A stretch of DNA of 57,778 bases from the IMG/VR virus record IMGVR_UViG_3300034143_000002. The stretch is one strand, 5' to 3'. The position numbers were made by a program, and so were the translations under genes. The number at the start of each line of letters is the position of its first letter. Positions within the stretch are counted from its first letter, which is position 1. The notes beneath the pieces are model-generated. The model saw only the letters and a list, made by a program, of their open reading frames with translations, made no database searches and had not been told where the DNA came from. The stretch comes from a virus. Shown one piece after another: positions 34,494-57,778 of this stretch.

Positions 34494-34949
34494 TCATAGA
34501 GTCAAAGAGAACATACCGTTTTCACGTCCCCTCGAAACCAACCCGCGCCGCTCCAGCGCGCTGATATGCTTTGCAATCGAAGCCTTTGAGCGGATGCCGA
34601 AATGGCGAGCAATCTGCATATATGTGGGTTGGTGCCCTTTCCTTTCAATGAAGCCTCTGATGTATTCGAGAATTTCTCTCTGTCGTTCGGTGCGAGGGAT
34701 GCCCTTTTTGACGAGATCATCTCCAGCTTCAACTTCAGTAGTTTCCGGTACCAATCTAAATAATGGACCCGGAAGTCGAAACGGCTGGTGACATTTCCGG
34801 CAGTAGACCTTCCCTTTCGGCCCGATGTACTTAACATCTTTAGGACTCCACCCCTGCGAGCCGGGATGATGCGGCGAGTGCTGAAGCGTCTCGCATCCGG
34901 GGCACGAGATCGTGACGATCAGGTCCTTAATCTCGAACTGAGCTTTCAT
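34494..34949 (-). CDS. Zinc-ribbon plus LexA-type wHTH DNA-binding protein (no peptidase domain)
   Basis: CPGC...CRKCH, then TERQREILEYIRGFIERKGHQPTYMQIARHFGIRSKASIAKHISALERRGLV. Confidence 0.7.
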   Translation of the reverse strand: MKAQFEIKDLIVTISCPGCETLQHSPHHPGSQGWSPKDVKYIGPKGKVYCRKCHQPFRLPGPLFRLVPETTEVEAGDDLVKKGIPRTERQREILEYIRGFIERKGHQPTYMQIARHFGIRSKASIAKHISALERRGLVSRGRENGMFSLTL

Positions 34950-36032: not shown

Positions 36033-37127
36033 TTAGTTGATACGGCTCCTGAGCTGAGCCTTCCAACCCCCGCCGCGCTTGGTGCGCTTGCGACGCTTGG
36101 ATTTGCCACTGGGCGGGCGAAACGGCACTCGCATCTTTTTGGCTGCACGCTTGCGCGCGGCATCTCCGCCCGAGCGGATGTAGCCTTGCGTCGTCTGCAC
36201 GTAGACGTGGCCGAGAAAGTCCCGCACGAGCTCAATGTCTTTGCTCTCCTTATGAAGGTGTGTGGCGGCGCTGCGCCTCAGGTCGTGCGCGGAGAAGTGA
36301 GCACAGCCCGCTTCCTCACCACGGCGCTGCAAAGTTTTGTAGATGGCTGCGGCACTCAGCCCCCTCTCTGTGTGAATGCCACCGTGCCTGTCTACGGGAC
36401 ACAGCAATGGGCCGGGCTCGTTCCCTCTCAGACGAAGCCAGAGGTTGATGCACCGGCGCGCCCCCCCATCCAGGAAGTGAACCGTGCGATCCCGTTCGCC
36501 TTTGCCGTGAACTCTCAATTGATGCGAGCGGGGCGTCCAGTCCGAGAGGTGCAAACGAATACTCTCGCAGCACCGCAGGCCGCCACCGTAAAGGATGGCC
36601 AGAAGAGCCGCATCGCGCGCGCCGGCAGCGGTCGCGCTCGCGCGGTCACAGATGCGAAAGAGAGCACTGATCTCAGAGACGGAGAGTGCGCGTCCGGGCC
36701 TGACCAAGTGATTGCCTCTCACTCCTTTGACATCCCGGATTTCTTCCAGTTCCTGAACCGACATCTGGTTGAGACGCCAGGCGCGGCGCGCCACCTCTTT
36801 GAGAGCCGAAAGCGTCGAGTTGATAACGCTCGCAGCATACTCTTGGAGCAGGAGCCGGTTGCGCACGTGCTCGACGGCCGGAGCACGCAGCGCTCGCCAG
36901 TCGTAGTCCATGATGGTTGCCTGATCCTCGCCCACGAGGATGCGCGCGGCCCTCTCCAGGTTGACCCGTTGACCGCGCTTGCCGCCTTCGGCCAAGTAGT
37001 CGAGGTAGGCGTTGCAGGGGGCGAAAGGATGGTTCGAGGGAAGTCCCGCGGGGCTCGAATGGACGAGGTGCAGCACGCCCATCTGGGAATCTTTTTCGAG
37101 GGTGATGTGGCCTGTTTTAACGCTCAT
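36033..37127 (-). CDS. int: Tyrosine integrase/recombinase
   Basis: LRCCESIRL (Arg), HGKGERDRTV, FSAHDLRRSAATHL (HxxR), FLGHVYVQTTQGY (His..Tyr). Confidence 0.9.
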   Translation of the reverse strand: MSVKTGHITLEKDSQMGVLHLVHSSPAGLPSNHPFAPCNAYLDYLAEGGKRGQRVNLERAARILVGEDQATIMDYDWRALRAPAVEHVRNRLLLQEYAASVINSTLSALKEVARRAWRLNQMSVQELEEIRDVKGVRGNHLVRPGRALSVSEISALFRICDRASATAAGARDAALLAILYGGGLRCCESIRLHLSDWTPRSHQLRVHGKGERDRTVHFLDGGARRCINLWLRLRGNEPGPLLCPVDRHGGIHTERGLSAAAIYKTLQRRGEEAGCAHFSAHDLRRSAATHLHKESKDIELVRDFLGHVYVQTTQGYIRSGGDAARKRAAKKMRVPFRPPSGKSKRRKRTKRGGGWKAQLRSRIN

Positions 37128-40956: not shown

Positions 40957-41187
40957 TCATGCTTCCCCCCGCTCGCTCCTCGCTTGCCCGCGGCAGCCGC
41001 GGCATCTCTTTGGCGGATTCTTAAATCCCTTCTCTTTGAAGAACTGCTGCTCGCGCTCCGTCCAGATAAAATCAGATGTGCATTCGACGCAGCGAATAAA
41101 CTGGTCAGAAAATGGTTTCTTATTTTCCTCGCGCGCCTTTCGTCGGTGGCGGACATGATCGCTCAAGTGTTTATTCTTAGGCGCCAT
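40957..41187 (-). CDS. Zinc-ribbon protein (76 aa), zf-trcl-like
   Basis: FIRCVECTSDFIWTEREQQFFKEKGFKNPPKRCRGCR. Confidence 0.55.
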   Translation of the reverse strand: MAPKNKHLSDHVRHRRKAREENKKPFSDQFIRCVECTSDFIWTEREQQFFKEKGFKNPPKRCRGCRGQARSERGEA

Positions 41188-43014: not shown

Positions 43015-43233
43015 TCAGGAATTGGCAAGTGCCGTGATTTCCTGAATCTCAAGCACTTTCTCCTCGACCAATTCGCCGAGTCGTTTAGCGATTTTTCTTA
43101 ACAATCTCGGGTTAGGACGGAGTTGATTAAGCACTTGAGAGACAGCGCTCCGATCCTCTTCGAGGTCGCGAGCAATGGCCGTCGCGTTCGTTCCCAAAAT
43201 CGCCATCAATGCATTGGTTTCACTGACCGTCAT
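43015..43233 (-). CDS. Cro-like HTH regulator (72 aa)
   Basis: LGTNATAIARDLEEDRSAVSQVLN. Divergent from the CI-like gene and heads the long minus-strand transcription direction. Confidence 0.6.
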   Translation of the reverse strand: MTVSETNALMAILGTNATAIARDLEEDRSAVSQVLNQLRPNPRLLRKIAKRLGELVEEKVLEIQEITALANS

Positions 43234-43327: not shown

Positions 43328-43798
43328 GTGACTGTTGGAGAGCGCTTAATCGAAGCTTATAAAGAGTCGTTGGGCACGGAAGATAAGAAGATTATTGCGA
43401 AATATCTGGGCTTCGAGACGGACAAGGCTGTTTACAAAGTAATTAATGGCGAGCGGGAATTAAACTTCGATGCGCTTATAAAATTCAGGAATTCTACGAA
43501 ACGTTCCATAGATTGGCTGCTCACTGGTGAGGGCCCGGATATAACTTCAGCGGTCGAATCGGAGCAGGAGGCCCGCATCGATCTCGACGAAAGTGAGACC
43601 ATCTTCATTCAGGGCCTGGCAGAGGTTGAAGGGAAAGGATTTGATGAAGTAGTTCGCGAACTTGTGATTGAGGCACTCCGACAAAGAAGCTCCACTCTCT
43701 TTACAGACTACCGCCAACTCGATCCAGATCAACTCGAATCGTTACTTAAACAATTATTGAAAGTTAATCACAATGGGGGAGGAAGGAAAACTGCTTAA
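43328..43798 (+). CDS. CI-like repressor (HTH, phage CI/P2 C-type)
   Basis: In-frame GTG 43328 chosen, because the ORF-track start overlaps the Cro-like gene. VGERLIEAYKESLG..KIIAKYLGFETDKAVYKVINGERELNFDALIKFRNSTKRSIDWLLTGEG. Confidence 0.65.
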   Translation: MTVGERLIEAYKESLGTEDKKIIAKYLGFETDKAVYKVINGERELNFDALIKFRNSTKRSIDWLLTGEGPDITSAVESEQEARIDLDESETIFIQGLAEVEGKGFDEVVRELVIEALRQRSSTLFTDYRQLDPDQLESLLKQLLKVNHNGGGRKTA

Positions 43799-45171
43799 TC
43801 CGCCGAGCCCTTATCCTTTACATCGGACAGGAGGGTGACGGGATGAGGTCTCTTTTTCGTCACTGACTTCCTCATGATGATACTACGTTTACGAGGTTTG
43901 ACTTCCGTGCGTTTATTTAGCAAACCCGAATGTCTTCCATTATTAACCATAACCGAGAAAGCCTGCTGAGTTATACCAAGGCGCAGCGCTGTTGGCGTAG
44001 GCTTACCCTCGCAAGCAGTTAATGCTTCAACGATCAACTTTCGTTCAAAGAGTAAAACCTCTTCCTTGAACGGAAGGCCCGCTGGCACGTAGATCGCTTC
44101 GCTCAACTCCTCAAACATCTGAATAGCAATTTTAGATCGCTGCTCAAGCGTTACGTATTCTGCTGCTAATTGAAAAGCGTGCTTATACACCTCGAATGAT
44201 TCAGCGAAGCGTCGCAGCTTGGCTAGAGATTGAGCTTGTAACTGTAAAGACTCCACCGCCTCAACGAACTCCCCTGCATCTTCAAATTGTTCAGATGCAC
44301 TGCGCGCTAAAGCTTCGGCCTCAGAGTATTTTTGTTCTGCTAAATAGATGCGAGCCTGTGAATCATCAACATGGACGAGCGCACCTTCATCCTTTAATGC
44401 TGTGAATAATATTCTGGAGCGGGTTATGTGGGCATGCGCTTCGGTGAAATCCGAGGCTGTCATGCATAACAGTCCTAAATTGTTTTCCAACCGAGCTAGA
44501 TAGCGGGTGTGCCCGGCTTGTTCCAAATGTACCCGGCATAAGAGAAACTCATCGTAAGACTGTTTCAAATTTCCGGTGTTCTTCGCAACAAGACCGGCTT
44601 CATTATGAAGGGTCGCCTGAAGAGTATGGCTGCCGCTCGCTTCGACGAGCTGCTTTATCTCATTCAGGACGTTGAGTGCCTCACCATACCGCCCCTGTGA
44701 TCTCACAACCAAGGCAAGGTTTAGCTGTGCCCACAACCTGGTTCCGTTTGAAATCTCCTTAATGCGATCAATAGCGCATTTGAGACGTACCTCCGCTTCA
44801 GGTAATGAGCCCTGCCGCCAGTACATAATCCCGAGCGTGCTTTCTGCCTCGGCTGCATATTCCGGTTCATTGAGCTGGATATATCGATCAAAAGCTGCGG
44901 TAACAATATCCTTGGCTAATTCCTGAAGGTTGGCTTCTTTGCGTGCGCTGCCGATCCACCCAGTCAGAGAGCCTGCGCGTAATAAAACTTGCGCCGCCGA
45001 AACAGGATTCAGCTTCTCTATCCTGGGCCAGTGACCCGCGCCTTTCCAAAACTCCACGAGTTCCTCAACTGCTAAATCATATTCACCTGCCCGCTCTTGA
45101 TTCAGAGCTTTTTCACAGGCGTCTGTCGCTCGCTTGTCAATCGCATTTGAAGAAGGTGTTCTGACTGGCAT
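43795..45171 (-). CDS. TPR-repeat protein with C-terminal Fis-type HTH (458 aa)
   Basis: Repeated A..lG..y...G....A helices through ~350 aa. C-terminal ERKLIVEALTACEGKPTPTALRLGITQQAF. Confidence 0.7.
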   Translation of the reverse strand: MPVRTPSSNAIDKRATDACEKALNQERAGEYDLAVEELVEFWKGAGHWPRIEKLNPVSAAQVLLRAGSLTGWIGSARKEANLQELAKDIVTAAFDRYIQLNEPEYAAEAESTLGIMYWRQGSLPEAEVRLKCAIDRIKEISNGTRLWAQLNLALVVRSQGRYGEALNVLNEIKQLVEASGSHTLQATLHNEAGLVAKNTGNLKQSYDEFLLCRVHLEQAGHTRYLARLENNLGLLCMTASDFTEAHAHITRSRILFTALKDEGALVHVDDSQARIYLAEQKYSEAEALARSASEQFEDAGEFVEAVESLQLQAQSLAKLRRFAESFEVYKHAFQLAAEYVTLEQRSKIAIQMFEELSEAIYVPAGLPFKEEVLLFERKLIVEALTACEGKPTPTALRLGITQQAFSVMVNNGRHSGLLNKRTEVKPRKRSIIMRKSVTKKRPHPVTLLSDVKDKGSAD

Positions 45172-45301
45172 GAAGCTGCACCCTATACCTTTGATTTGAC
45201 TTAGGTAATGCGCCTTACAAGAAAACTTGTAGAGGCCGGTTTCTTAACCTATGATGAGGACGACAGTTCTTACTCCCACCATTCCGAAACCGGAGCCTTT
45301 T

Positions 45302-45496
45302 ATGAACAAAACAAAAAGAGCCGCTATAACTCTGGCGTTGTTGGTAATCATGGCCGTCTCTACACAGGCCGGTGATATGGGTATGCCAGGTGATGAGTCG
45401 CCGACGGAGCCAACAACAACGAGCGCGCCCTCGACAGACATCACGCTGATAGATTATCTGGGCATTATCATCAGCATCGCGACGAGCCAAATCTAA
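45302..45496 (+). CDS. Small secreted pre-peptide candidate (64 aa)
   Basis: GGAG 6 nt before ATG 45302. MNKTKRAAITLALLVIMAVSTQA|GDMGMPGDESPTEPTTTSAPSTDITLIDYLGIIISIATSQI. Divergent from the TPR gene. Confidence 0.45.
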   Translation: MNKTKRAAITLALLVIMAVSTQAGDMGMPGDESPTEPTTTSAPSTDITLIDYLGIIISIATSQI

Positions 45497-45753
45497 GGCT
45501 CAGCTTTCTATGATTCAACTGTGGTGGCCGCTAACTATGCTGGTTGGCGGCGCAGTTTAAGTGTGCCCGCCGTCGGGGGGCGGAAGATTGAGAAACTGAG
45601 GAAACGCTCGCATCTTAGCCACAGTTTCTGTGAAAAGGCAATAAGCAAAGATCTTTGCCTGATAACCTTAGACACCGGATTTTGCGATTCGGATACTAGC
45701 AAAGACAATACTATTACGCAAGATACTATCAGAGAAGCCATGCTATTTGTATA

Positions 45754-45999
45754 ATGCGAGGCATGGTCACGATTGATATTCCTGGGGCCGCTGAGAAGCG
45801 CGGGATTAAAAACTCGTATCAGTTGATGAAGGCCATCAACTCGGCAGGTGGGGCGCAAGTGGATGCGGCTACTGCCTCTCGCTGGTGGAAGTCCAAAAGC
45901 ATGACGATGATCAGCACGACCACCATTGATACGATCTGCCACTCCCTCAAATGCAAGCCAAGCGACTTCATCATCTACCAGGCAAACGTAAAAAAGTGA
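45754..45999 (+). CDS. XRE-family HTH regulator (HTH_26-like)
   Basis: SYQLMKAINSAGGAQVDAATASRWWKSK...ISTTTIDTICHSLKCKPSDFIIY. TATAAT overlaps ATG 45754, so a leaderless start at ATG 45763 is possible. Confidence 0.65.
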   Translation: MRGMVTIDIPGAAEKRGIKNSYQLMKAINSAGGAQVDAATASRWWKSKSMTMISTTTIDTICHSLKCKPSDFIIYQANVKK

Positions 46000-46476: not shown

Positions 46477-46680
46477 ATGACCGCGAGACAATTTGCTGCC
46501 GAGATGAACGTTAACTACAGAACAGCTCTCAACTGGCTCGACGCGGGGCTGGTGCCTGACGCTGAATACATTTCATCTCCGATTGGATCTTACTGGGAGA
46601 TTCCTGCAACAGCACTGAAGATGGAACGCCCGAAGCCTGGGCCAAAGAGGAAAATCAAACAACCGGAGGCTGCACAATGA
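46477..46680 (+). CDS. Small HTH protein (67 aa), first gene of par operon
   Basis: [31 protein letters not shown] overlap with parA. Confidence 0.55.
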
Positions 46681-47477
46681 AAGTGATCGCCATCGCTAAT
46701 CAAAAAGGAGGCGTCGGAAAAACCACAACGGCGGTCAACCTCGCTGCGGCTCTGCAATCACAGGGGCGAAAGGTGCTGGTGCTCGACCTTGATCCCCAGG
46801 CGACAGCCACACGCTTTCTTCTCGACCGCTATGGCACAGACGGGGAGACGGTTTACGACGTACTGATGCACGGCAAGCCTTTGTCAGAGGTTATTCTCAA
46901 GACTCCCGTCGGCATTCCCGTCGCTCCCAGCAACTTCAATCTGGCGTCCCTCGACCTTGACCTCAATAGCGCCTTAAACCGCGAGCACAGGCTGGCGGAT
47001 GCATTGGAAGAGGTCACAGGCTTCGACTATGCCCTGATTGATTGTCCGACCTTTCTGGGCTTCGCCAACATCAACGCATTCGCCGCCGCTCAGAGTGTGC
47101 TGATCCCCATAGAGTGCGCGCCGGAATCATGGGAAGCGGTTCCCTATCTGATGAATACCCTCAGAAAGATCATCGTCCAGCTCAAACATCCATTAACGAT
47201 CTTTGCGCTGCCGACTTTTCTTGAACGGACGAATATTGCACGGGATATCCACACGGAGATTTGTGCGCACTACGAGGCGTACACTCTTTCGCCGATCAAT
47301 AAGAACGTCCGTCTGAAAGAAGCGTTCAACGCGCGCAAGCCGATTATTCAATACGATCCGGCAGCATCAGGAACAATGGACTATCTCAGGGCTGCAAAGG
47401 AGATCATCAGTGGACACGAAACCGAAACGGAGATACGGCGCAATCAGGAAGGGCGAGGAAACAGCGGCAGGAACTAA
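46677..47477 (+). CDS. parA: ParA/Soj-type partition ATPase
   Basis: [25 protein letters not shown] (deviant Walker A), [15 protein letters not shown]. Confidence 0.9.
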
Positions 47478-50111: not shown

Positions 50112-50468
50112 GTGGCTAAATATGGCCGCCCCCGTCTGCCCGAAAGCGAGCGCAGAGAAGCGGGAGCCCTTCACATCCGGCTCAACAAGGAAGAGCGACA
50201 GATCATCGAAGAGAAAGCGTCTTCTGCCGGCGTGACGCCCCACGAGTGGGCGCGCGCGGCGTCGCTGGAGCGCGACCCTCCGCCGCGCAAAATCATCCCC
50301 GAACTGAATCGCCAAGCTTGGCTGGAAATGGCCCGGCTGATGGCCACCTTGAACGGCGCGATCTGGCGCTTCCAGCCCGGTGGGGAAGAGTCCGTCAGGG
50401 AGGCCGTGGAGGCTGTCCGGCAGGAGTTGGCCGCGGTCAGAAATCAGCTGATCGGAGGCTCATCGTGA
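50112..50468 (+). CDS. MobC-like relaxosome accessory protein
   Basis: GTG start. GALHIRLNKEERQIIEEKASSAGVTPHEWARAASL (RHH-type MobC pattern). GTGA overlap with the relaxase. Confidence 0.65.
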   Translation: MAKYGRPRLPESERREAGALHIRLNKEERQIIEEKASSAGVTPHEWARAASLERDPPPRKIIPELNRQAWLEMARLMATLNGAIWRFQPGGEESVREAVEAVRQELAAVRNQLIGGSS

Positions 50469-51835
50469 TCGGCAAAATAACGGGGGGCGCGAGCTTCGCA
50501 GGCGCTCTGGAATACCTGACGAAGATCAAAGAGCCGAAGCTGCCTGAAGAGAAGGAACCGTACCGGCAGAAGCTCAAGGAGGCGAAGCTGTCGCCGGGCG
50601 AGCACGCGCCGCCTTTCGAGGCCGGAGAGCGCCACCGGGTGATCGGCGGCAACATGTCGGGGCTGACCAGGGAGGAGCTTCAGAAAGAGTTCGAGGCCAT
50701 CTGCGGCCAGCGGCCAGACATAGAGAAACCGGTTCATCACGTCTCTCTGAGCGCGGGCGAGAACGACCGCCTGAGCGTCGAGCAGTGGCAGGAGATTAGC
50801 GAACGATACATCCATGAGATGGGATTCAAGGATGCCCCATACGTCGTCATCCAGCACCGTGACGGGGCCCACGATCACGTCCATATCCTGACCTCGCGCG
50901 TGGATGTCAACGGCCATGTCGTCAGTGACTGGCAGAGCAAGCAGCGGGCGGAAAAGGTGCTGCGCGGCGTCGAGCGCGACTACGGGCTGGAGCAGACGAA
51001 GTCGAGCACGGAAGTCGAGCGCGCGGCCCCGAAGCGCGGCGAGATTGAAGTCTTCAACCGGACACGCGAGCTATCGGCCAGGATGGAAATGCAGAGCCAT
51101 GTCGACCTTGCCCTGCAAGATAATCCTTCCGCCACGGCGTTCATCGAGCGCTTGCAGAATTCCGGCATCGAGGTCGTCCCTTACGTGCAGGACTCCGGCC
51201 TCATGACCGGTATCAGCTTTCGGAAAGGGAAGGAGCTGATGAAAGGTTCCGACCTCGGGCGCGGCTTCTCCTGGCCTGCGCTTCAACGGCGCGGGCTGGA
51301 CTACCAGCCGGAGCGGGATCGCCCGGCGGTCGAAGCCGCCAGGGAACGCTCGGCGCTCGAGGAGCACGCGCAGCCAACTGGCCCGTCCACTGTGGAGCGA
51401 AACTTCGGCGACGCGGTGAGAGATATAGGTGAGCGGACAGGGCAATACCTGATCGATCAGGCCAACCCGTTGAGACCTCTCGAAAATCAGGTGAGAGCCA
51501 TAGAGGTGACGGGCCGTGCCCTCGTCGACGGCGTGACGGCTCTCAGGGACACGCTCTCCAGACAGTCTGACCCGGCGCAGCCTCAGAGGGCGGCAGGGCC
51601 TGAGCCTGACGGTCGAGACTCGATCCAACGATTGCAGCAGACCACTGGGCTGGAGACGGCCAGAGATGGCCAGGGCGCGCTCGAACACCTCAACGAGATC
51701 GCCGGGCCGCAGCGCCCGGACTCCGCTGAGCCCTCTCTCGAAGACTCACTGACCCGGACACCCGGCATGACCCCTTCACAGGAGATTGCAAACGAGGAAC
51801 ACACCATCGAACAGGCAATCGAATTTATACTCTAA
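50465..51835 (+). CDS. Mobilization relaxase (MobA/VirD2 family)
   Basis: GGAGG 6 nt before GTG 50465. VIGKITGGASFAGALEYL N-terminus. HHVSLS, and the His triad HRDGAHDHVHIL. Confidence 0.85.
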   Translation: MIGKITGGASFAGALEYLTKIKEPKLPEEKEPYRQKLKEAKLSPGEHAPPFEAGERHRVIGGNMSGLTREELQKEFEAICGQRPDIEKPVHHVSLSAGENDRLSVEQWQEISERYIHEMGFKDAPYVVIQHRDGAHDHVHILTSRVDVNGHVVSDWQSKQRAEKVLRGVERDYGLEQTKSSTEVERAAPKRGEIEVFNRTRELSARMEMQSHVDLALQDNPSATAFIERLQNSGIEVVPYVQDSGLMTGISFRKGKELMKGSDLGRGFSWPALQRRGLDYQPERDRPAVEAARERSALEEHAQPTGPSTVERNFGDAVRDIGERTGQYLIDQANPLRPLENQVRAIEVTGRALVDGVTALRDTLSRQSDPAQPQRAAGPEPDGRDSIQRLQQTTGLETARDGQGALEHLNEIAGPQRPDSAEPSLEDSLTRTPGMTPSQEIANEEHTIEQAIEFIL

Positions 51836-53684: not shown

Positions 53685-56600
53685 TTAATTGGTCTTGTAA
53701 ACTGCGTTGATGTTGATAGTTGATGTGTTGGTGAAGGCAGCGTCCGTTAATGCAGTCGCCGTACCATTGTTATTGGCGTAGAGGTTGACTGTAGTCGTAG
53801 CAGAGGGCGTTGTCTGCCCGAACGTCGTGCCTGTGTAAGACGCGCCGTAGATGACCACCTCGACCGGTTGGAAGCGATTCGACGAAGAAGTCGCCGCAAC
53901 CGGCAGTCCGGTCAAAGTGGCCGTCCCTGTTGATGAGCCTTTGTTAGACAGCAGCATGTAGGCATCAACGTAAACAAGGTCGCCAACACGCGTGTACTTG
54001 CATACCTGTGCAGTGTAAGTCAGCCCCGTGCTTGCGCCGCCGAACTTGAGCGAGATCGTGCATGATCCTTCATCATAGTTCGCGAGCGATGTTCCCCCAA
54101 AGTTTATCGAGGTGGCTGCGGCGGCTCCGAGGGTTGGAGTTACCAGAGTTGCGTTGTTTGCACGGACGAACCCGCCGCCATCGCCCGTCTCGTCACTGAC
54201 CACGCCCGCAAGTTGTGCGCTGGTAGTCGCAGCAAACTGCCCCAGTGTGCCGCTCGTCGCGCCGTAAGTGGTCGTATCAACAGAGAGCGTGCCGTCACTG
54301 CCTGAAGTCTTCACAAATCCATTGCTCGTCAGGTTCGAGAGCTTCGCTATATTCTGCGTCGTGTTGACAGTGACCGTATTGGTCGAGCGTGTCAGCCCCG
54401 TCGAGAATGTTAACGGGACTTCGTAAGCGCTCGATGCCGTGTAGGCCGCGCTGCCGAGCGTACCGCCTGCTCCGACGTTCAAGGTCGAACCGTCCGTCCC
54501 CGCGATAGTCAGGGTGTTATTGACCGTGAACGTCTTGGCACTTGTCAGGTTGAATGTGCCCGTCGTTGTCGTGACCGTCAGGCCGTTGTAGGTCTTTCCG
54601 GTCAGAGCGGAAGTGATGCGGCCGTCGGCCAGAGTGCCGCTCGAAATGTTGCTCGCATTCGTCGTATCAACATTGGCGACGTTGCCTAACCCGACATCGC
54701 CTTTGACTATCCCGGTCGGCGTGGTGATGTTTGGCGAGTTGCCGAATACTACTGAACCGGTTCCGGTCTCATCAGAGATGGCTCCGGCAAGGCCCGAGCT
54801 ATCCGTCACGCTGGAGACAACGCCGGTTGTCGTCGTAACCTTCATTAAGCCGGTGGAGAGGGTTGATAGGGCCTGCTCTCCTGAGAGCGTGGCATCCGGG
54901 ACTTGAGTAATATATGTGGCATCCGTAGGCGCTCCACTTCCACCGCACGTCGTACCGGCATCAACAAAATTTCCATCAGCGTCTGTTTTTACACAGTTGT
55001 CGGGGGTCAGAGTGCCCGTCGTCGTCGCGATCTTCGTAGAATTACCGGAGATGGAATCAAGGGTAGAACCATCCAACACGAGGGAGGGAGTAACAACCGA
55101 CGTGCCGAAGTAGCCGGTGCGAGGACGATTGGCCGAACTTTGCCCGATGTCAACCGCATCGTCATCCGACGCTCCAAAATAGTCGTCAGTAACTATCCAA
55201 CGATTCAGGCCGCTGGTGCGAAAATAAAGAGACCCGCCGACGTTCGCCGTCCCGATTGCGATGTCTCTGGTCGTTCCAGAGCCCGCCGCGCGCGCCATAA
55301 TTTCGTAAGGTGTGCCATCACCAAAGGCATTGATGTCGAGCGTTTCAAAGTTGTCCGCATCATAGTACCGTCCATAGACGTGAACATTATTCCCGAGGAG
55401 TGTGCCGGGCCGCATATCCCAACTACGGTCGAAGCTGCCAATGGGAATCCCACCCACTCCGAAATATATGCCTGAGTTTGAAAGGTAGGACGCAGATGTA
55501 GCGGTGGTTGCTTGAATAGCGCCGGAGCCAACAACTCTGAGGACGCCGGAGCTTGTCACCTCAATGCCGTTGCCGCCGCTCGCCGTTGCTTTGAACGGGT
55601 TGATGGCCGAGCTTGAATTAGCTACGGCGGAAATCATGTAGCCCGTTCCCGTATTGTTATTTGTGTCCCGGACAGCAAACAAATCAGCTGACGCGCCCGT
55701 TGCCCCGCCCCATGTCATAGTGATTTTGTTCGCGCCCATCGAAGGTAGAAAATCGCTTGTCGGGTTCGCGAGCTGATCCAGTCGGACGGAGGCGTAAGTC
55801 TGCGCGCCGGTCAGGAAAGTATTCGCCGAGGCCGTTCCACTTCCGAGTCGTGCGGTCGCAATCGTTCCACTGCCGATTGCGGCAGCATCGAGCGAGCCGC
55901 CGCCTGCGGCGTTCTGGTGATTGTGGGTTGCATTGACGAAGCTGGCGATAGTCGGGGTGATGATGGTTGGGGTGTCGTTCCCCATGAGCAGCCCTGTACC
56001 TGTCTCGTTTGTGATCGAAGCCAGAAAGTTCGCGCTCGTATCAGAGAGACCATAACCTGAGAAAGTTGTTGGGTTAGTTCCCGCCGTCACTCTGCCTTGT
56101 GCGTCGGTCGTTACGCTTCGATAGGTGCCAGCCGTGCCGGTGTTCTTGAGCGTCGTCGCTAGCGCGCCGCCCGCAGTCGTGATGTCACCGGTGAGTGCTG
56201 GAAACCTTGCAGCCAGAAGCAGACTACCAGCGTCGAGGCCCGCATAGCCGCTCGCCGCATTCTTGTTTGCCGTATTTTCGTAAGTGGTCGTATCAACAGA
56301 GAGCGTGCCGTCACTGCCTGAAGTCTTCACAAATCCATTGCTCGTCAGGTTCGAGAGCTTCGCTATATTCTGCGTCGTGTTGACAGTGACCGTATTGGTC
56401 GAGCGTGTCAGCCCCGTCGAGAATGTCAGCGGGACTTCGTAATCACTTCCCCCCGACGCCGAAGAAAAGCCGCCACTGCCATTGCCTTTTAAGATCGAGG
56501 TGCCTGAAGTCGCCGGTGCGTAGTCTGTGCCCGATACGGCAGCAGTAAAGGCGGAGGTGCCGTTGCCTTTGAGGAGACCGGTCAGTGTGGCCGCGCCAGA

Positions 56601-57778
56601 GCCGCCTTGAGGAACAGGAAGGATGCCAGCGACTTCTGCTGTTGCCAGATCAACAGCGTTCGAGGTCGAGCCTGAGCCGATTACGTTCGTCGCATTCGTC
56701 GCATTGGTTGCGTTCGTCGCCGTTGTTGCGCTTGTGGCCGTTGTGGCCGTCGAGGCATTGCCGCTCAATGTAGCCGTGATCGTCCCGGCTGAGAAGTTGC
56801 CCGATGCGTCGCGCGCGACAATGGCGCTCGCGGTGTTGGCGCTCGCCGCTGTTGTATGCGTGTTCGCCAGCACGCCATTGACTTCTGCTGTTGCTAGGTC
56901 TACAGCACCTGTCAGGGAACCAGAACCTATTACATTTGCCGCGTTCGTCGCGTTCGTCGCCGTTGTTGCGCTGGTGGCCGTTGTGGCCGTCGAAGCATTG
57001 CCGCTCAAGGTGGCCGTGATCGTGCCCGCAGAGAAGTTGCCCGATGCGTCTCTGGCTACTATGGCGCTCGCCGTGTTGGCGCTCGCTGCCGTCGTCTTAC
57101 TGTTGGGCAATATCCCATTGACTTCGGCGGTCGCTAAATCCACAGCCCCTGTCAGAGAGCCAGAACCGACTAAATTAGTGGCATTGGGCGCTGTACTACT
57201 AAAGGAGAGCGTTGACACGTTAGAGACCGGCGCGGAGGCCGTCATCATCTGCCCTTCTGTCGGCTGGATATTCGGAAGAAGGTAGACCGTGGAAGTCGTG
57301 ACAGAGGGAGGGGCTGATAGCCCTACATAGTTTGAGCCGCCGCCGCTTGTGTCCTGAATGAACCTTATCTGAGCGGCTGAGCCACTATTGCCGAGAACAA
57401 AATTCCCGCCCGAATACTGAAAGAGGGATTCGGCAATAGTGGTTGAGCCCGCCCCACCTGTGAAGTATGGGAAGCGATTCGTCAGGATCGTCGTCGTGAC
57501 GGTCGCCTTGCTGTTCAGCTGAGTTTGAGCATTTGAAGAGAGCCCGGCGATATTCAGAAAGTCTGTTGCGCTGGGAGTGGATTCGCCTTTGTAAGCGTTG
57601 GCGCTCGTAGCTGTAGTCGCGTTCGTCGCCGTTGTTGCGCTGGTGGCCGTTGTGGCCGTCGAAGCATTGCCGCTCAAGGTGGCCGTGATCGTGCCCGCAG
57701 AGAAGTTGCCCGATGCGTCTCTGGCTACTATGGCGCTCGCCGTGTTGGCGCTCGCTGCCGTCGTCTTACTGTTGGGCA
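53685..57778 (-). CDS. Tail fibre, main part (open to window end; ORF-track TTG 57677 is not the real start)
   Basis: 1330+ aa, Thr/Ser/Gly/Ala-rich. Repeats GSGSLTGAVDLATAEVNG.L.N..TTAASANTASAIVARDASGNFSAGTITATLSGNASTATTATSATTATNAT x3 and EVPLTFSTGLTRSTNTVTVNTTQNIAKLSNLTSNGFVKTSGSDGTLSVDTTTY x2. Confidence 0.8.
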   Translation of the reverse strand, partial: PNSKTTAASANTASAIVARDASGNFSAGTITATLSGNASTATTATSATTATNATTATSANAYKGESTPSATDFLNIAGLSSNAQTQLNSKATVTTTILTNRFPYFTGGAGSTTIAESLFQYSGGNFVLGNSGSAAQIRFIQDTSGGGSNYVGLSAPPSVTTSTVYLLPNIQPTEGQMMTASAPVSNVSTLSFSSTAPNATNLVGSGSLTGAVDLATAEVNGILPNSKTTAASANTASAIVARDASGNFSAGTITATLSGNASTATTATSATTATNATNAANVIGSGSLTGAVDLATAEVNGVLANTHTTAASANTASAIVARDASGNFSAGTITATLSGNASTATTATSATTATNATNATNATNVIGSGSTSNAVDLATAEVAGILPVPQGGSGAATLTGLLKGNGTSAFTAAVSGTDYAPATSGTSILKGNGSGGFSSASGGSDYEVPLTFSTGLTRSTNTVTVNTTQNIAKLSNLTSNGFVKTSGSDGTLSVDTTTYENTANKNAASGYAGLDAGSLLLAARFPALTGDITTAGGALATTLKNTGTAGTYRSVTTDAQGRVTAGTNPTTFSGYGLSDTSANFLASITNETGTGLLMGNDTPTIITPTIASFVNATHNHQNAAGGGSLDAAAIGSGTIATARLGSGTASANTFLTGAQTYASVRLDQLANPTSDFLPSMGANKITMTWGGATGASADLFAVRDTNNNTGTGYMISAVANSSSAINPFKATASGGNGIEVTSSGVLRVVGSGAIQATTATSASYLSNSGIYFGVGGIPIGSFDRSWDMRPGTLLGNNVHVYGRYYDADNFETLDINAFGDGTPYEIMARAAGSGTTRDIAIGTANVGGSLYFRTSGLNRWIVTDDYFGASDDDAVDIGQSSANRPRTGYFGTSVVTPSLVLDGSTLDSISGNSTKIATTTGTLTPDNCVKTDADGNFVDAGTTCGGSGAPTDATYITQVPDATLSGEQALSTLSTGLMKVTTTTGVVSSVTDSSGLAGAISDETGTGSVVFGNSPNITTPTGIVKGDVGLGNVANVDTTNASNISSGTLADGRITSALTGKTYNGLTVTTTTGTFNLTSAKTFTVNNTLTIAGTDGSTLNVGAGGTLGSAAYTASSAYEVPLTFSTGLTRSTNTVTVNTTQNIAKLSNLTSNGFVKTSGSDGTLSVDTTTYGATSGTLGQFAATTSAQLAGVVSDETGDGGGFVRANNATLVTPTLGAAAATSINFGGTSLANYDEGSCTISLKFGGASTGLTYTAQVCKYTRVGDLVYVDAYMLLSNKGSSTGTATLTGLPVAATSSSNRFQPVEVVIYGASYTGTTFGQTTPSATTTVNLYANNNGTATALTDAAFTNTSTININAVYKTN
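54263..54426. repeat. 164-bp direct repeat, copy 1 (2 mismatches to 56279-56442)
   Basis: Read directly; encodes the EVPLTFSTGL...VDTTTY module. Confidence 0.9.
56279..56442. repeat. 164-bp direct repeat, copy 2
   Basis: Read directly. Confidence 0.9.
56947..57109. repeat. Internal copy of the terminal repeat (163 nt identical to 57616-57778)
   Basis: Read directly. Diverges from the copy at 1-127 only after position 57109/127. Confidence 0.9.
57652..57778. repeat. Terminal direct repeat, copy 2
   Basis: Identical to 1-127. Confidence 0.95.

Follow-up and report, generated by a model that had tools for sequence, protein, structure and literature searches.

The repressor region of the phage

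The window, that is the whole 57,778-nt (57.8-kb) stretch of DNA analysed, is the complete, circularly assembled genome of a tailed phage with identical ends of 127 nt, and carries terminase, portal, head and tape measure genes together with an integrase gene. It is a temperate phage of soil Acidobacteria; the receptor of another temperate element described below, L088, was also found on a 109.6-kb Pyrinomonadaceae MAG contig, which indicates the host. The initial annotation had read traits of the sequence as pointing to a diderm host, and the Acidobacteriota are indeed diderm.

A CI-type repressor gene (43328-43798, plus strand; GTG start, 156 aa) encodes an XRE-type HTH and a non-peptidase C-terminal domain. 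Divergent from it lies a small Cro-like HTH gene (43015-43233, minus strand), the other arm of the immunity switch, with a promoter-like site, TTGACA-17-TACCAT, on the minus strand at 43300-43272. The CI gene is convergent with, and overlaps by 4 nt, a gene for a TPR protein (43795-45171, minus strand), which confirms the adjacency of the two genes noted earlier. Divergent from the TPR gene, with its start 130 nt from the TPR start codon, is a small gene of 64 codons (45302-45496, plus strand; ATG at 45302, stop at 45494-45496) preceded by a GGAG ribosome-binding site (45292-45295) 6 nt 5' of the ATG. The initial description of this small gene, namely its orientation, spacing, ribosome-binding site and start, was thus accurate.

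On the same strand, 257 nt downstream of the small gene, follows a gene for an 81-aa HTH_26 (Cro/C1-type) protein (45754-45999, plus strand), which is syntenic in a second phage, L142. Between the two genes only a weak terminator-like hairpin (45484-45501) was found, and the gap displayed no nucleotide conservation between the window and L142; the HTH_26 gene might be an output reached by read-through from the small-gene promoter. None of the genes neighbouring this region had a PADLOC match, which indicates that no known defence system is located there.

A cytoplasmic TPR protein with a C-terminal HTH

The TPR gene encodes a 458-aa protein consisting of a TPR superhelix (residues ~8-356, nt 44104-45150) and a Fis/NtrC-type HTH (residues ~368-420, nt 43912-44070), and ending in a basic tail; the protein is cytoplasmic and has no TM segment. 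The superhelix was matched by Pfam TPR_12 (E=4.5e-14) and by further TPR models, while the match to HTH_8 was weak (residues 375-401, E=0.012, 15.8 bits, under the Pfam cut-off of 22). However, the HTH of the window protein aligns column-for-column with those of homologues that score 27-32 bits against the same cut-off, and the profile of the receptor family also matches the HTH of FleQ and ZraR. The HTH is thus real despite its sub-threshold score. A central sigma54-interaction AAA+ domain was absent from the protein in the Pfam search.

An AlphaFold2 model (pLDDT 87.5) shows ~8-9 TPR repeats wound into a superhelix, with a small helical DNA-binding domain C-terminal to it, so that Pfam, the homologue alignment and the model agree with the earlier description of a 458-aa TPR protein ending in a Fis-type HTH. 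The best fold matches are generic peptide-binding TPR proteins, LGN/Pins (TM 0.70-0.78) and also kinesin light chain, the TPRs of which hold extended peptides in their groove. A Rap protein (Rap pLS20) appeared at rank 43 by fold (Foldseek TM 0.38/0.46, rmsd 10.9), and no RRNPP chain was present among the 54 PDB sequence matches obtained with a profile search. Searches of PHROGs and Pfam gave no AimR-like match, and tblastn of the receptor against 50,697 GenBank phage records gave no match.

The small gene encodes an exported peptide of a large family

The leader of the small gene product is a canonical Sec signal peptide (codons 1-23, 45302-45370), which begins with MNKTKR, continues with a hydrophobic core and ends at a cleavage site between STQA and GD. 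The exported part of 41 residues (45371-45493) is rich in Pro and Thr, with a mature N-terminus of GDMGMPG and a hydrophobic C-terminal tail, DYLGIIISIATSQI. This bears out the Sec leader and ~41-residue product proposed at the outset, and the same design was found throughout the family. Searches of Pfam, NCBIfam, PHROG and PADLOC gave no match for the peptide, and gene callers predict the gene in all copies.

A profile of the peptide family was run on a 1.31-Mb six-frame translation, in which the window peptide scores 47 bits. A homologue of the peptide gene was found in 76 of 80 receptor loci of Pyrinomonadaceae/Blastocatellia genomes, exactly one per locus, and in 75 of these loci it is divergent and located ~90-200 nt upstream of the receptor gene; the exception, L026, has the peptide gene on the receptor's strand, ~1 kb upstream. 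The same profile had no match in 46 unrelated viral loci. When searched from the peptide side, a divergent TPR-HTH_8 gene was present 120-160 nt away in each of three look-ups. Conserved pairing in relatives had been set beforehand as the test of the association, and it held both in these loci and in further phage elements, confirming that the receptor and peptide genes form a conserved cassette, far from chance. No third gene was common to the receptor loci, and neither a transporter nor a processing protease was linked to the cassette, so that the unit consists of two genes. Synteny beyond the pair was lineage-specific only, with a DNA ligase gene and a DsbA-like gene in ~27 orthologous loci.

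The peptide profile was matched over its full length by ~2,171 cluster representatives, none of which is named or carries a Pfam domain. The peptides have Ala at position 23 (68/75) and Gly at position 24 (65/75), followed by [DE][IM]xTP[GP]; between the two ends, length and sequence vary greatly and the N-terminal motif recurs as 2-4 internal repeats (SGDMGTG occurs four times in the L023 peptide), and the final residue is aromatic in 55/75. Across the family the exported part measures 35-65 residues and its ends are conserved. The hydrophobic C-terminus, for which the initial annotation had offered a membrane anchor as the alternative, is no chance anchor; the tail of the window peptide is the divergent counterpart of the most conserved element of the family, an amphipathic C-terminal tail, ...ALNLLQSVLSLF. 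In a mirror-tree/partial Mantel analysis the peptide C-terminus was correlated with the TPR part of the receptor (r=0.49), but this was equalled by the signal-peptide control (r=0.54), and the correlation thus shows linkage only.

A putative palindromic operator within the predicted peptide promoter

A putative operator, the perfect 6-4-6 palindrome TACAAGAAAACTTGTA (TACAAG-AAAA-CTTGTA, 45216-45231), is located between the two divergent genes, and no second copy is present in the 57.8-kb phage genome. The right half of this 16-bp palindrome forms the -35 element of a predicted sigma70-type promoter of the peptide gene (45227-45255, plus strand), with TTGTAG at 45227-45232, a 17-nt spacer and TATGAT at 45250-45255. 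The predicted promoter is fairly strong by itself, and the palindrome also lies within the leader region of the receptor gene.

Other cassettes have homologous palindromes in the corresponding position and share the promoter geometry, as TTGCAA-17-TATTAT in host cassettes, likewise in L142, and as TTTACA-17-TATCAT in L088, the last found independently by a scanner. Of 74 intergenic regions, 21 contain CAAG-N4-CTTG, where 0.17 would be expected; the site has a fixed position, with TAnnnT 18-21 nt downstream. In contrast, sigma54 -24/-12 elements (TGG-N9-TGC) were essentially absent from 75 intergenic regions, those of sigma54-type receptors included. The half-site covaries with the recognition helix of the receptor, THQGLAFIL being paired with GCAAG, [ST]HQRL with GCAAA, TKQNLxYKL with GTAAAG (L088 and L141) and xQQ with ACAAG (window and L142). 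This covariation makes it very probable that the receptor controls the peptide gene through the palindrome.

We therefore propose the TPR-HTH_8 receptor/exported-peptide cassette as a new Pyrinomonadaceae family, defined by receptor homology, a divergent peptide gene of the family and a palindromic operator that forms the -35 element of the peptide promoter, all of which are present in the window.

Chromosomal paralogues and phage copies

The receptor family is overwhelmingly chromosomal, with at least 554 genomic matches, and identities within it are 31-40% over more than 350 residues. Pyrinomonadaceae genomes carry several cassette paralogues with different output domains, in which the TPR is the constant part. 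Its partner is HTH_8 by itself, a sigma54-AAA+ module together with HTH_8, or HTH_8 together with a receiver domain. In the ~755-aa paralogues, which have the full sigma54-AAA+ module, the TPR occupies the N-terminal regulatory/sensory position of enhancer-binding proteins. The idea that the cassette was a phage invention was thus rejected, the phage version being a compact derivative of a large chromosomal Pyrinomonadaceae family. The initial annotation had suggested a new type of phage communication module; a novel receptor/propeptide unit is indeed present, while a phage-specific origin is contradicted by the chromosomal family and communication is a proposal.

Five temperate elements carry the cassette next to the repressor gene in CI position, namely the window, L088, L141, L142 and L136, which otherwise differ (integrase/ParA type, Mu-like in the case of L141, and others), so that its place beside the lysogeny switch, as originally pointed out, is a kept feature. 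The window CI is 52%, 31% and 33% identical to the CI beside the cassettes of L088, L141 and L142, respectively, and the CI genes of L141 and L142 carry Pfam Phage_CI_repr; the L136 gene at this position has no homology to the window CI. L142 has the exact gene order of the window, including the 4-nt CI overlap and the downstream HTH_26 gene. Each phage copy retains a peptide gene of its own, with a C-terminal tail that differs from the host consensus. Further phage copies were sought by pattern-based scans: with A3, the scan of viral sequences recovered L088 alone once more, and that of metagenomes gave no match; a viral scan with the replication protein likewise gave no match.

Relation to known peptide-signalling systems

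The layout had been likened to that of arbitrium and RRNPP systems. The likeness of logic stood up, while homology to AimR or RRNPP receptors did not, and membership of those families was rejected on the C-terminal Fis/NtrC HTH, the lack of an RRNPP sequence match and the rank of Rap among the fold matches. As in the RRNPP(A) systems (Rap/Phr, Rgg/SHP, NprR/NprX, PlcR/PapR and PrgX), a cytoplasmic TPR-type receptor is encoded beside a small exported pro-peptide, and the receptor is predicted to control transcription at or near the peptide gene. The divergent gene pair and the hydrophobic C-terminal tail resemble Rgg/SHP, with its hydrophobic C-terminal pheromone. RRNPP systems likewise occur as several paralogues per genome, are carried by phages and plasmids, and include tandemly duplicated propeptides (PMC9765709, PMC10075063, PMC11343458). 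However, the TPR of the cassette receptor is N-terminal and not C-terminal as in RRNPP(A) receptors, its HTH is a Fis/NtrC HTH_8 at the C-terminus where theirs is of XRE type and N-terminal (Rap has a 3-helix effector domain at the N-terminus instead), its paralogues bear sigma54-AAA+ or receiver domains, and the exported part of the peptide is longer, at 35-65 residues with conserved ends. All RRNPP systems described so far come from Bacillota or from mobile elements of that phylum (PMC10075063, PMC9765709), whereas the host of the cassette is a diderm acidobacterium.

In SPbeta-like and other Bacillus phages, arbitrium (AimR-AimP-AimX) similarly places a phage TPR receptor and a secreted peptide in the lysogeny-control region, with one palindromic site in the phage for the receptor, as predicted here, and a small downstream gene or transcript as output, for which the HTH_26 gene is the candidate in the window and L142. 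In contrast to arbitrium, the receptor is no AimR homologue, the genes are divergent and not tandem, and the cassette comes from a chromosomal family of its diderm host; the HTH_26 gene would be a candidate equivalent of aimX.

The C-terminal HTH_8, which putatively recognises palindromic boxes, is shared with NtrC-family enhancer-binding proteins and TyrR-type regulators, and the ~755-aa sister paralogues combine the full sigma54-AAA+ module with a TPR in the N-terminal sensory position. Unlike that family, the window receptor lacks the AAA+ domain and its target promoter looks sigma70-type, without a -24/-12 element. We know of no description of an NtrC-family protein in which a TPR sensory domain is coupled to a cognate exported peptide, and literature searches for Acidobacteria with RRNPP, and for TPR enhancer-binding proteins, returned nothing relevant.

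A proposed peptide-sensing loop

As the palindrome is both the -35 element of the peptide promoter and part of the sensor leader, the cytoplasmic TPR-HTH sensor, presumably as a dimer, would bind TACAAG-N4-CTTGTA and set transcription of the peptide gene and probably of its own gene. Its sign could be repression, by occlusion of a fairly good -35 element, or class II-type activation. The peptide gene would give rise to a Sec-exported 64-aa precursor, from which cleavage of the signal peptide and probably further proteolysis would release a fragment that returns to the cytoplasm. The fragment might be the mature N-terminal motif G-[DE]-[IM]-x-T-P-G, of which many homologues contain tandem copies, or else the amphipathic tail conserved at the C-terminus. 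Bound in the TPR groove, the fragment would alter DNA binding and close an autoregulatory loop that reports density or kin. Temperate phages of Pyrinomonadaceae would have taken up the compact version of the cassette and kept it attached to the CI repressor gene, where, by analogy with AimR/AimP in Bacillus phages, it would most likely make the lysogeny/maintenance decision depend on information about the population.

The data show the pairing of the genes, the export signal, the layout of operator and promoter, the covariation of operator and helix, and the linkage to CI; that the peptide is the ligand and is taken up again, which sign the regulation has, and that the cassette bears on lysis-lysogeny are what we infer from this arrangement. 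A self-contained receptor/pro-peptide regulatory cassette with a peptide-sensing autoregulatory loop, tied to CI in phages, is the reading we prefer, although tentatively and at somewhat less than an even chance. Counting against the peptide as ligand, the host is diderm, and a signal would therefore have to pass the outer membrane on the way out and again on the way in, or else act from the periplasm. Moreover, given the single operator in the phage, no direct route to the lytic or lysogenic genes is visible, the exceptions being read-through into the HTH_26 gene past the weak hairpin and convergent transcription with CI.

As a receptor/propeptide module the cassette is real and novel, and it is plausibly a convergent analogue of arbitrium. 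We consider unlikely the broader version of this idea, a hitherto overlooked convergent system of peptide communication in a diderm phylum, in which Pyrinomonadaceae would harbour thousands of private TPR-HTH_8 cassettes for quorum or kin sensing, and the CI-linked copies of their phages would count infections or lysogens in an arbitrium-like manner with non-homologous parts, outside Bacillota.

Descriptions of peptide signalling via cytoplasmic TPR receptors, and of peptide communication between phages, are so far confined to Bacillota and the mobile elements that these carry (PMC10075063, PMC9765709, PMC11945551). If the cassette signals as proposed, peptide quorum sensing would extend to the Acidobacteria, a phylum that ranks among the most abundant in soil and is one of the least understood there, the principle of a receptor with its pro-peptide would have originated more than once, and a concrete, testable system would be at hand for the lysis-lysogeny decisions of soil phages. 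To our knowledge, Gram-negative phages only tap small-molecule signals of their hosts.

Alternative roles of the cassette

The small exported protein might itself be the output, a periplasmic or membrane-associated factor whose amphipathic C-terminal helix binds the membrane, with a role such as envelope remodelling, superinfection exclusion or lysogenic conversion, while the TPR-HTH protein is a local regulator that senses an unrelated cytoplasmic cue or partner. The region beside CI is a classical site of lysogenic-conversion 'moron' genes, and the position of the cassette fits this well. At chromosomal loci the promoter drives the small gene alone, as a monocistronic unit convergent with the DNA ligase gene. 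The C-terminal tail of the peptide is both hydrophobic and amphipathic, the cassette has no linked genes for import or maturation, and the covariation test did not single out the functional parts of the peptide. However, a regulator of 450-770 aa for each protein of ~60 residues, in several paralogues per genome, would be unusual for a structural factor and is typical of signalling cassettes, and the TPR holds the sensory position in the sigma54 forms. Moreover, the exported part carries a short motif in tandem copies that begin exactly at the signal-peptidase site; an anchor protein would hardly be expected to show this, and such repeats are known from pheromone precursors (PMC11343458). The central part of the peptide is highly variable in both length and sequence. 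We therefore regard a role as envelope effector as doubtful. Even if the peptide were output only, a large unannotated family of small proteins (~2,170 clusters) with dedicated regulators and an operator code would have been defined.

Rap-Phr of Bacillus prophages manipulates host physiology in the lysogen, and the phage cassette could similarly listen to, or jam, the paralogous peptide circuits of the host instead of counting phages. Such a role is consistent with the overwhelmingly chromosomal distribution of the family, with phage receptors whose identity to one another (31-35%) does not exceed that to host receptors (36-40%), with the single operator in the phage, and with the recurrence of the window operator core, ACAAGAAAACTTG, at a sigma54-type cassette of another element (L087/L136). 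Yet the constant place beside a repressor gene in five otherwise differing elements points to a role in the immunity module, and the retention of an own peptide by each phage, with tails unlike the host consensus, suggests private channels; we consider interference with host circuits improbable.

That the small ORF is a chance reading frame next to an ordinary stand-alone TPR regulator has in its favour a length of only 64 aa, the lack of database matches and an overlap with short ORFs in other frames, but this is vanishingly improbable and is refuted by the locus-wide profile matches and the ~2,171 full-length cluster representatives, the same three-part design being found in 76/80 receptor loci and four other phage elements, with all copies predicted by gene callers and with a ribosome-binding site and promoter present.

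The receptor and the peptide gene form a conserved cassette of host origin

Every relative of the window receptor (31-40% identity) came from Acidobacteriota, mainly from metagenome-assembled genomes of Pyrinomonadaceae/Blastocatellia, and a genome scan returned at least 554 hits to the family, several per genome. Three architectures were found: TPR + HTH_8 (about 500 aa), TPR + sigma54-AAA+ + HTH_8 (about 755 aa), and TPR + HTH_8 followed by a C-terminal receiver domain (about 630-645 aa). A divergent 71-aa gene of the same design as the window peptide gene already lay beside the first receptor relative examined, and in a heuristic scan about 72 of the 80 receptor genes had, upstream and divergent, an ORF of 58-92 aa with a signal peptide; the two starts were usually 90-200 nt apart. 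A peptide profile, built from 35 of the matched peptides so that the other matches are independent, was then applied in six frames to 1.31 Mb of retrieved DNA and found exactly one ORF in 76/80 receptor loci and none in 46 unrelated viral loci. Look-ups from the peptide side on long contigs revealed a divergent TPR-HTH_8-REC gene in 3/3 cases. The pairing of the two genes in relatives, put forward as a check in the initial annotation, was thus borne out from both directions, and the cassette is conserved and of host origin. No third gene common to the receptor loci was found.

An exhaustive HMMER search recovered 2,171 peptide-family cluster representatives (599 at E<=1e-10), all about 70-100 aa and matched over their full length. 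Members with a source name were all 'hypothetical' or mis-named, and none carried a Pfam domain.

One orthologue group of ~500-aa receptors (host loci L004, L009, L013, L020, L028 and about 20 more) showed conserved, ordinary synteny in the order ATP-dependent DNA ligase, peptide gene, receptor, a 460-aa SurA_N/thioredoxin/DsbA-like protein and ABC1/UbiB kinase. The receiver class (sequence P0022; host loci with ~620-650-aa receptors such as L008, L010 and L019) carries REC at the extreme C-terminus, after HTH_8 (residues 513-620 of 633), a domain order unusual among response regulators. About 2.5 kb from one host cassette, a tandem array on the minus strand (L138, 6208-7255) encodes at least four Cys-rich secreted proteins of ~78 aa (MKKLILAIALLVTASNLAVGVVYA...), a small-protein family different from the cassette peptides, which could be bacteriocin-like or a regulated output.

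The window receptor is a TPR protein with a C-terminal HTH

The receptor gene (43795-45171, minus strand) encodes a 458-aa product in which Pfam detected TPR_12 (E=4.5e-14) and further TPR models and, below threshold, a Fis-type HTH_8 match (E=0.012; residues 375-401). When the protein was aligned with 23 homologues, the E376...A383-L384...L398-G399 segment proved invariant or nearly so; HTH_8 in the homologues reaches 27-32 bits, above the cut-off of 22, and among PDB entries the receptor-family profile hits the HTH of FleQ and ZraR. These comparisons show the predicted HTH to be genuine. An AlphaFold2 model (pLDDT 87.5) comprised an all-helical TPR superhelix (residues ~8-356), a second, small helical domain at 368-420 and a basic tail that is disordered, so that Pfam, alignment and model all agree with the original description of a TPR protein ending in a Fis-type HTH. 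No hydrophobic segment was present in the receptor (maximum 19-residue Kyte-Doolittle mean 0.91), which marks it as cytoplasmic.

The peptide family has a uniform design

The peptide gene starts at ATG 45302, 130 nt from the receptor start and on the opposite strand, behind a GGAG at 45292-45295. The encoded 64-aa precursor opens with a basic n-region (MNKTKR) and a hydrophobic core of 13 residues; cleavage at STQA|GD would leave an exported part of 41 residues that is Pro/Thr-rich and hydrophobic at its C-terminal end. A longer, 81-aa reading was rejected, since its ATG at 45251 falls within the -10 of the predicted promoter (45250-45255).

Across 75 cassettes the design was uniform. Residues 1-23 form a Sec signal peptide ending in A-F-A, with Ala23 in 68/75, and the mature peptide begins with G24 (65/75) followed by [DE]-[IM]-x-T-P-[GP]. 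The middle is rich in Pro, Thr and acidic residues and hypervariable in length, the N-terminal motif often being repeated two to four times, as in SGDMGTG x4 (locus L023), GDIGSPG x3 (locus L061) and GETQTPPC x2 (several loci). Pheromone propeptides in which a short unit is tandemly repeated within an exported precursor are known (PMC11343458). At the C-terminal end, ~12 residues make up an amphipathic tail that is conserved (...ALNLLQSVLSLF or ...EALAALLSVY), with Leu at -4 in 56/75 and a terminal aromatic residue in 55/75. In the window peptide the signal peptide and a GDMGMPG start are retained, and the tail is divergent (DYLGIIISIATSQI). Paralogous peptides of the same genome differ in both motif and tail.

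A predicted operator overlaps the peptide promoter

Cassettes of the TPR-HTH_8 and sigma54 types carry a 16-bp palindrome, TGCAAG-N4-CTTGCA or a variant, at a distance of about 25 nt from the start codon of the receptor. The palindrome half nearer the promoter can be read as a -35 (TTGCAA), with a TATNAT box 17 nt beyond; the peptide gene, preceded by a GGAG site, begins about 80-110 nt downstream. CAAG-N4-CTTG occurred in 21/74 intergenic regions against 0.17 expected from shuffles; receiver-type cassettes carry other, less uniform intergenic repeats. The predicted operator of the window, TACAAG-AAAA-CTTGTA at 45216-45231, is the only copy in that genome, and its predicted promoter consists of TTGTAG (45227-45232), a 17-nt spacer and TATGAT (45250-45255). 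In phage L088 a promoter scanner independently found TTTACA-17-TATCAT at the predicted place.

The half-site changed with the recognition helix: THQGLAFIL was paired with GCAAG (about 22 cassettes), [ST]HQRLxSML with GCAAA, TKQNLxYKL with GTAAAG (phages L088 and L141) and xQQ with ACAAG (the window and phage L142). By comparison of helices, half-sites and operator-promoter geometry across cassettes, it is well supported that the receptor binds the palindrome and controls the peptide promoter, and it probably also controls its own leader. The -35 and -10 are fairly good, so that repression by occlusion would be no less likely than class II activation. No sigma54-type promoter was found in the cassette intergenic regions.

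The cassette travels with phage immunity modules

The window is a tailed-phage genome (terminase, portal, major head protein, tape measure, integrase), present in three other public assemblies. Its first and last 127 nt are identical (1-127 and 57652-57778), which makes it a circularly assembled genome of about 57.65 kb; nt 1-100 recur at 56983, a repeat about 670 nt apart in or near a 1330-aa ORF (53685-57677). ParA, a NikA-like protein, a MobA/VirD2 relaxase and a tyrosine integrase (46677-47477, 50246-51835, 36033-37127), taken together with the tailed-phage genes, suggest a phage-plasmid or mobilisable-prophage lifestyle.

The CI-type repressor gene (GTG 43328 to 43798) is convergent with the receptor gene, overlapping it by 4 nt, and divergent from a Cro-like HTH gene (43015-43233). 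The repressor has no S24 peptidase domain and shares its C-terminal domain with the CI of L088, L141 and L142; a LexA DNA-binding domain occurs in a separate protein (34494-34949).

In four further temperate elements the cassette directly adjoins a repressor gene. L088 is an IMG/VR contig whose receptor is found again on a 109.6-kb Pyrinomonadaceae MAG contig, and is therefore a prophage with a Pyrinomonadaceae host; a CI 52% identical to that of the window is followed by the peptide gene and a 414-aa receptor (35% identical). L141 is Mu-like (rve transposase, AAA_22 protein) and has the order Phage_CI_repr, peptide gene, 437-aa receptor. L142 reproduces the window order exactly (HTH_26, peptide, 428-aa receptor, Phage_CI_repr with a 4-nt overlap), with receptors just 31% identical. 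In L136/L087 a sigma54-type receptor and peptide lie between a CI-position gene and the integrase. All four CI-linked compact receptors (414-458 aa) are missing a ~60-residue linker of the host receptors. The cassette, found in both orientations with respect to CI, thus accompanies a CI-type immunity module across phages that otherwise differ.

An ankyrin-repeat protein is encoded directly downstream of the receptor gene in L141 (797-2419 and 8323-8913), and a small zf_Tbcl (PF13451) zinc-finger protein sits beside replication genes both in the window (40957-41187) and in the unrelated element L136 (3800-3982).

Likely function and relation to known systems

The TPR domain is what all architectures of the receptor family have in common, and in the sigma54 forms it occupies the sensory position; it resembles the TPRs of LGN/Pins (TM 0.70-0.78) and kinesin light chain, whose groove takes up extended peptides, and the exported peptide gene is the sole constant genetic partner of the receptor. 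For these reasons the most economical reading is that receptor and peptide would form an autoregulatory peptide-sensing loop, with a logic as in RRNPP systems, and that the phage cassettes would provide an arbitrium-like input into lysogeny control. No direct target was visible among the lytic or lysogenic genes of the window phage; possible outputs are read-through into the HTH_26 gene (45754-45999, plus strand) or transcription convergent with CI.

In the main rival reading, a dedicated regulator would govern a peptide that acts as an envelope effector or moron. The diderm host envelope is a weak point of the peptide-sensing reading, and no transporter or protease linked to the cassette was found in the receptor loci. 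Covariation with the receptor TPR was r=0.49 for the peptide C-terminus, no higher than the r=0.54 of the signal-peptide control, and thus points to linkage alone. A second reading accepts the signalling as real but has the phage copy manipulating host circuits.

The cassette would follow RRNPP/arbitrium systems in working logic but is not a member of them: the receptor HTH is of another type and at another position, neither sequence nor fold shows specific similarity, and the host lies outside Bacillota. Reviews describe peptide receptor systems and arbitrium from Bacillota and Bacillus phages only. NtrC-family regulators are related through HTH_8 and the AAA+-bearing paralogues, although the window receptor itself has no AAA+ domain. 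No description of the cassette was found among the papers searched, and we rate it as a receptor/pro-peptide module whose parts are not homologous to those of RRNPP/arbitrium systems, from a phylum new to such modules and from its phages.
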